From: Escherichia coli
GTDB lineage: Bacteria; Pseudomonadota; Gammaproteobacteria; Enterobacterales; Enterobacteriaceae
Strand: one strand, 5' to 3'
NCBI RefSeq assembly: GCF_016026235.1
Contig: NZ_CP065613.1
DNA length: 64,000 bases
The notes under the pieces: generated by a model
Seen by the model: the letters and a program-made list of their open reading frames with translations, nothing else
Database searches by the model: none
Told to the model about the DNA's origin: nothing
Part shown: in pieces, positions 39,907 to 40,086 of the stretch
Numbering within the stretch: position 1 is the first letter of the stretch
Layout of the letters: each line of letters starts with the position of its first letter
Position numbers and translations under genes: made by a program

Positions 39907-40086
39907 TTGAACGATAAGACGTTTGATTTTACCAGTGAGCGCGATTTTGTGAGTCGCGCTCATTGCGTAGGTCTAAACCCTCAAGCCACTCTACAGTGGA
40001 ATGAAGTAAACGAGGATGCCATCTCGGCATTAAATGAACTTGCAGAAGAAACAGGATGTTTCTCTGATGAGTACCGGAAGTTTTAA
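39907..40086 (+). other. Short ORF or C-terminal gene fragment (59 codons from TTG; frame open upstream into folA)
   Basis: Reads ..TFDFTSERDFVSRAHCVGLNPQATLQWNEVNEDAISALNELAEETGCFSDEYRKF; no ATG start; not in the ORF track because it is under 60 aa. Confidence 0.25.

Follow-up and report, generated by a model that had tools for sequence, protein, structure and literature searches.

A probable relic of the antitoxin gene ccdA in the islet between folA and apaH of Escherichia coli

The interval between the core genes folA and apaH is the place where E. coli O157:H7 carries ccdO157, a chromosomal CcdA/CcdB toxin-antitoxin module. Passages in papers that all cite Mine et al. 2009 describe this interval as highly variable between strains, with a REP in about half of them (PMC3184786, PMC7167474, PMC7232551, PMC2654758); those in PMC3184786 and PMC7232551, again citing Mine et al. 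2009, locate ccdO157 there in O157:H7 and mention defective or absent ccd genes in some strains. In K-12, the gap is 77 bp long and contains a REP-type palindrome (PMC7232551). In O157:H7 Sakai, it is 632 bp long and contains ccdA (77 aa) and ccdB (104 aa), which are annotated 'CcdA-like' and 'CcdB-like' (ECs_0052 and ECs_0053); the stop codons of ccdB and apaH overlap in this strain (TTAA). Of 5,426 complete E. coli genomes, 2,025 have an intact O157-type ccdAB here. A further configuration was reportedly described by Mine, Guglielmini, Wilbaux and Van Melderen in 2009 (Genetics 181:1557), namely a class in which a large piece of DNA with a remnant of the ccdAO157 antitoxin gene and ORFs of unknown function lies between folA and apaH; a variant of this ccdA-remnant class is said to carry an insertion sequence as well.

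In this report, we examined a short open frame at this site in a stretch of 64,000 nucleotides of E. coli (one strand of contig NZ_CP065613.1, assembly GCF_016026235.1), referred to below as the window. The gene order is kefC, folA (+ strand), an islet of 1,425 bp (39887-41311), apaH (- strand) and apaG. The left core flank, folA (39407-39886), encodes a dihydrofolate reductase identical to the K-12 protein, and the right one, apaH (41312-42160), is present in a 282-aa form. The 3' end of apaH (41312-41340, ...GEGEAVAS) is the same as in O157 Sakai; apaH of K-12 has 280 aa. Within the islet, the ORF under study (39907-40086, + strand; TTG start, 59 codons and a stop) is followed by a spacer (40087-40184) and by two genes on the opposite strand, a 155-aa hypothetical ORF (40185-40652) and a DUF4291 gene (40688-41287). 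Our main finding is that the 59-codon ORF is very probably a non-functional relic, or pseudogene, of ccdA, left by a CcdA/CcdB module of the ccdO157 type that once lay between folA and apaH.

The product of the ORF scores 35.4 bits on Pfam CcdA (PF07362), above the family threshold of 22.4 (E = 1.4e-8). The match is limited to ORF residues 27-59 (window 39985-40083, + strand), which correspond to positions 39-71 of the 71-position profile, that is, to the CcdB-binding C-terminal domain; the 26 N-terminal residues are unmatched. Residues 4-77 of Sakai CcdA_O157 give a tblastn alignment (E = 1e-17) to 39904-40083, in which 45% of positions are identical and a single gap spans 14 residues. Taken together, the tblastn match and the DNA alignment to Sakai ccdA delimit a span of 39896-40086 (+ strand) that is homologous to ccdA of the ccdO157 family and ends at the ccdA stop codon. 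The relic has kept the C-terminal motif ETGCFSDEYR and a run of 25 nt, ending at 40078, that is identical to Sakai ccdA. In a PDB sequence search, the 59-aa peptide hit nothing but designer repeat proteins (Cake, Scone), in each case through many stretches of about 3 bits, and we discarded these as artefacts.

A sequence-only reading of this DNA had drawn attention to a 59-codon plus-strand frame without ATG, open back into the 3' end of folA. The ORF listing and the frame-1 translation (from 39706) confirm this description: a TGA at 39865-39867 closes the frame upstream, and from 39868 onwards no stop interrupts it before the TAA at 40084-40086. The first 19 nt of this open stretch thus coincide with the end of folA, which is read in another frame; as Met is absent from its 72 sense codons, the open stretch has no ATG. 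The same reading took the frame for the tail of a gene whose 5' part had been lost, and proposed a homology search with the peptide. The search was productive, as the matches to Pfam CcdA and to CcdA of E. coli O157:H7 attest, and the idea of a degraded gene holds. The loss of the 5' part does not, since homology extends from the position of the ancestral start codon (39896-39898) down to the stop; almost all of ccdA can still be made out, broken where it stands, and the frame is thus no clean C-terminal tail.

The closest intact relatives of the relic among 1.84 billion representative proteins belong to the CcdA_O157 family, with about 60% identity over the C-terminal half. A closer intact parent was sought in 5.8 billion proteins, in the 1.84 billion representatives and in plasmids, and none was found: only copies of the relic itself and members of the CcdA_O157 family appeared, and plasmid ccdA genes were at most 43% identical (tblastn). 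At the DNA level, the relic is 63% identical to Sakai ccdA in its N-terminal part and 76% identical in its C-terminal part, whereas identity to Sakai reaches about 98% in folA and apaH on either side. This difference indicates that the relic is an old, diverged member of the CcdA_O157 family that did not arise recently from the O157 allele.

Lesions were read from the alignment to Sakai ccdA DNA, and the state of the start codon and of the following TGA from a comparison of islet alleles. The 76 bp that separate the folA stop from the ccdA start in Sakai, the presumed site of the ccd promoter region, are missing in the window. The ancestral start-codon position (39896-39898, + strand) reads AGG; among 13 other islet alleles, seven keep ATG there, four from E. 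albertii and three from E. coli, and read ATG ACT ACA AAT TGA. Even this surviving ATG runs after four codons into a TGA of the ancestral reading frame (39908-39910, + strand), so that the original ccdA frame is dead in every allele. One base is absent near 39927 relative to Sakai ccdA, and the 59-codon frame exists because this 1-bp deletion puts the TTG in frame with the C-terminal half. Finally, 42 bp (14 codons, TVALNAELKKHAAT of CcdA_O157) have been deleted, with a junction at approximately 39985-39994. By alignment, this deletion falls in the N-terminal DNA-binding half of CcdA. That half, which also serves dimerisation, has a ribbon-helix-helix fold; it is incomplete in the relic, where 14 codons are gone and the remainder is unmatched to the profile. 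We also observed a protein of 59 aa (P0031), an independent CcdA_O157 variant with an internal deletion of 18 residues (MSATLTVALNAELKKHAA) at nearly the same place, and this stretch of ccdA may be deletion-prone. All lesions except the change from ATG to AGG are common to all alleles, including those of E. albertii, which places the decay before the spread of the islet.

Unlike CcdA genes, the relic has neither a start codon nor a promoter/operator of its own. A promoter scan from folA to the ORF revealed no sigma-70-like promoter on the + strand, and a terminator scan predicted no terminator on that strand, either near the ORF or between folA and the ORF. The genes downstream are convergent and unrelated, and a cognate ccdB in the same operon is absent: under permissive tblastn settings, neither CcdB_O157 of Sakai nor CcdB_F detected ccdB-like sequence in 39800-41400, spacer included, and CcdB_O157 gave only noise (E > 1) across the whole 64-kb window.

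Variation among 13 alleles, a small sample (that of the window, eight others from E. coli and four from E. albertii), comprises 10 nonsynonymous and 4 synonymous changes in the 59 codons, and control frames obtained by shifting gave 10:4 and 8:6. Random single-base changes in this sequence are expected to be nonsynonymous in 72-75% of cases (about 75% when stop-creating changes are left aside) and to create stops in about 4%. The variation of the relic thus looks neutral, its 10:4 ratio being that of the neutral expectation and of the shifted frames, and purifying selection is not apparent in these 14 changes; so few segregating changes may nevertheless be compatible with weak selection. The same count yielded 9:80 for apaH (Fisher p = 2.7e-6), 13:23 for DUF4291 (p = 0.03) and 33:22 for the 155-aa ORF. 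Pairwise pN/pS was 0.77 for the whole ORF, 3.8 for the 26 N-terminal codons and 0.40 for the 33 C-terminal codons; with 0.36 in a shifted frame, the last value is no evidence of constraint. All 13 alleles keep the frame intact, but only about 0.5 stop-creating changes are expected among 14 under neutrality, so that little can be concluded from the lack of stops. In the conserved C-terminal part, residue variants include G to E in ETGCF and L to F. The protein databases contained one frameshifted form of the relic and forms fused to insertion sequences (P0007, P0013-15).

Could the frame have no ancestry at all, and be a mere by-product of a short intergenic stretch? It is short, lacks an ATG and overlaps the end of folA, and similar frames are numerous in any 64-kb window. 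Against this stands significant homology to CcdA, in protein and in DNA, at the exact site where ccdAB is intact elsewhere; the Pfam match, the tblastn match and the alignment to Sakai ccdA DNA refute a chance origin, to which we give next to no credence. A second possibility starts from the same homology and grants the peptide a function: translated from TTG 39907 or GTG 39949 on folA read-through transcripts, it would be an orphan mini-antitoxin, a CcdB-binding C-terminal peptide providing anti-addiction against CcdB that arrives on plasmids or through recombination, without autoregulation. In its favour, the whole C-terminal domain survives, with a match to the CcdA profile up to the last residue, none of the sampled alleles has lost the open frame, the stretch from folA to the ORF has no predicted terminator, and in the allele of the window AGGA, a candidate ribosome-binding site, precedes the TTG by 7 nt. 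C-terminal fragments of F-plasmid CcdA reportedly suffice for the neutralisation of CcdB (Bernard and Couturier 1991; De Jonge et al. 2009). A precedent for such a role is the chromosomal ccd of Erwinia chrysanthemi, which acts as an anti-addiction module (reviewed in PMC2654758 and PMC7354431). However, the AGGA is the mutated start codon itself and is missing from the 7 of 13 alleles that keep ATG; in the predicted fold, the TTG is part of a stem and the GTG sits at the loop of the 18-bp hairpin; substitutions look neutral, 10:4 as in shifted frames, and affect conserved C-terminal residues. Moreover, one review states that F-plasmid CcdB is neutralised solely by the plasmid antitoxin and not by O157-type CcdA (PMC7354431); another words this differently (PMC10886550). 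The promoter scan, the predicted fold, the substitutions and the loss of AGGA are indirect signs against an expressed orphan antitoxin that neutralises CcdB, and we regard such a function as unlikely. It is similarly improbable that the relic has been kept as a minimal CcdB-binding peptide conferring immunity to incoming CcdB, the conserved motif and the open frame then reflecting a selection too weak to be detected in 13 alleles. A working peptide would represent a natural minimal antitoxin and a real case of anti-addiction in E. coli; the evidence points in the opposite direction.

The third alternative concerns the transcript instead of the peptide. Folding predicts two hairpins in 39904-39969 (+ strand): the TTG belongs to the stem of the first (39904-39929), and the GTG lies at the loop of the second (39930-39969, 18 bp). 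The segment 39880-40010 folds at -47.9 kcal/mol (z = -5.45 compared to shuffled sequences), which places both candidate starts inside a strong fold. The decayed sequence could therefore have been co-opted as a structured 3' end of folA, a stabiliser or a terminator that would replace the REP palindrome of K-12. The 18-bp hairpin begins 44 nt past the folA stop, K-12 has its REP-type palindrome at the equivalent place, and, compared with Sakai ccdA, where 6 of 8 positions match, two substitutions have made the palindrome perfect. On the other hand, the hairpin lacks a U-tract, the terminator scan is empty on the + strand, three of four stem polymorphisms break a pair with none compensated, and an Rfam search revealed no family match and nothing else of relevance. 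We consider an RNA element very unlikely. Decay of ccdA into a non-functional relic is the reading that we retain.

The islet is present in 543 of 5,426 complete E. coli genomes, at full length in 536 and partially in 7; the one partial match that we examined is cut by IS1 and a rearrangement. A CcdA coding sequence was annotated in 30 of 30 genomes sampled evenly down the ranking of the 543. RefSeq names it 'type II toxin-antitoxin system CcdA family antitoxin', without pseudogene flag in the records examined, and gives two starts for this one relic: GTG 39949 (WP_075331771.1, 45 aa) and TTG 39907 (WP_000998543.1, 59 aa). In E. albertii, the islet occupies the same folA-apaH site. Among GTDB species representatives, E. 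whittamii alone has the deletion junction of the relic; the islet of its strain Sa2BVA5 is 99.7% identical to that of the window, while folA, apaH, kefC and apaG are 91-93% identical. More generally, islet alleles diverge by 2.5-4.5% regardless of species, whereas the flanks track the species tree, with 7-10% between species. From the divergence of the islet irrespective of species, and from its near-identity with E. whittamii against much lower flank identity, it follows that the relic travels with the islet as one unit.

The last flank mismatches between E. whittamii and the window are at 39856 and 41351, so that identity switches within 30 bp of the islet end on the folA side and within 40 bp on the apaH side. 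This pattern indicates a recent interspecies transfer of the islet, with very sharp boundaries. Conceivably, the whole islet, relic included, behaves as a discrete cassette that passes from one Escherichia species to another and targets the stop codons of folA and apaH; a special mechanism is unneeded, since later erosion of the donor flanks by recombination with native alleles would also give sharp boundaries. The relic has further been carried along with mobilised folA. On the IncY plasmid NZ_CP072804.1 (25239-26436), the order is IS26, folA, the 59-aa relic, a truncated 155-aa ORF, IS1 and blaTEM-1; on the chromosome NZ_CP068591.1 (locus 485-5022), IS1B, kefF-kefC-folA-relic and IS1 lie beside yiaW/aldB. 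In both cases, the relic hitch-hikes with the same folA variant (P21L, H45N, H114Y), of which P21L is a known trimethoprim-resistance change.

What else the islet contains bears on how it was assembled. Purifying selection acts on the DUF4291 gene (pN/pS 0.15; profile match E = 2e-68), which starts 24 bp downstream of apaH; one O111:H8 genome carries a frameshifted copy. The 155-aa ORF has no family match, is less constrained (pN/pS 0.30), and is truncated, disrupted or missing in several genomes. NCBIfam and PADLOC gave zero matches for the three islet proteins, and a PDB sequence search gave none for DUF4291 or the 155-aa ORF. As DUF4291 lies on the same strand 24 bp past the apaH stop and is followed by the 155-aa ORF, both may be co-transcribed with the rsmA-apaG-apaH operon. 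On a metagenome scaffold (L016, 6001-6570), a 189-aa homologue of the 155-aa ORF (56% identity) sits alone between apaH and folA. This scaffold comes from another enterobacterial lineage, with core genes about 80% identical, and contains neither DUF4291 nor the ccdA relic. The presence of a lone homologue in another lineage points to the folA-apaH gap as a recurrent landing site for the 155-aa ORF family; its occurrence without DUF4291 or the relic argues that the islet is a mosaic of pieces acquired separately at a hot spot, and not the stump of one large element.

These observations bear on the view, put forward in the sequence-only reading, that the frame lies between folA and an islet that is itself the degraded remnant of a larger insertion. 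An earlier insertion, ccdAB, is indeed recorded at folA-apaH, and to this extent the view was correct. A larger parent, however, did not emerge: the 536 of 536 full-length islet matches are 1.4 kb long, the gene is more complete only in the ccdAB islet, which is smaller (632 bp in Sakai, compared with 1,425 bp for the islet of the relic), and the rest of the islet is not degraded. Nor is the relic outside the islet. It is part of it in every copy examined, and lies within the block that is near-identical to that of E. whittamii.

The succession of events may be envisaged as follows. The toxin gene would have been lost, or replaced, as the segment with DUF4291 and the 155-aa ORF came to occupy the site; the antitoxin gene, needless once the toxin was gone, would then have drifted. 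That the 59-codon frame is still open would be explained by its short length, by the TTG that the frameshift put in place and by the little time elapsed. The relic is probably inert, apart from passive transcription as folA read-through. In these terms, it would be a textbook example of the decay of a chromosomal toxin-antitoxin system after loss of the toxin, and it matters little beyond annotation. There it does have a consequence: tallies of 'orphan antitoxins' built on RefSeq annotation of this kind will include relics devoid of promoter and start codon.

Among described systems, F-plasmid CcdA resembles the relic in that the surviving profile match is the C-terminal toxin-binding half, an intrinsically disordered domain. 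In contrast with F-plasmid CcdA, the relic has no cognate toxin, operator or autoregulation, and F is not singled out among the plasmid ccdA genes, all of which stay at or below the 43% identity given above. The ccdEch locus of Erwinia chrysanthemi 3937 likewise offers a chromosomal antitoxin homologue without plasmid context, but it is a complete and expressed CcdA-CcdB pair, whereas the relic lacks a start codon, a promoter and any sign of purifying selection. Much closer is ccdA of ccdO157 in Sakai: it occupies the same site, right after folA and facing apaH, with the same ETGCFSDEYR motif and the same variant of the apaH 3' end; the relic differs from it by the absence of the promoter region, of the ATG, of 14 internal codons and of the ccdB partner, and by a DNA identity of only 63% and 76% in its two parts. 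A feature of this kind is already known, both as a reportedly described configuration and through its annotation in RefSeq. The islet lies between folA and apaH, and its ccdA remnant lacks ccdB and is accompanied by ORFs of unknown function, which are the marks of the ccdA-remnant type; together with the existence of variants carrying insertion sequences, they liken it to the class reportedly described by Mine et al. 2009.
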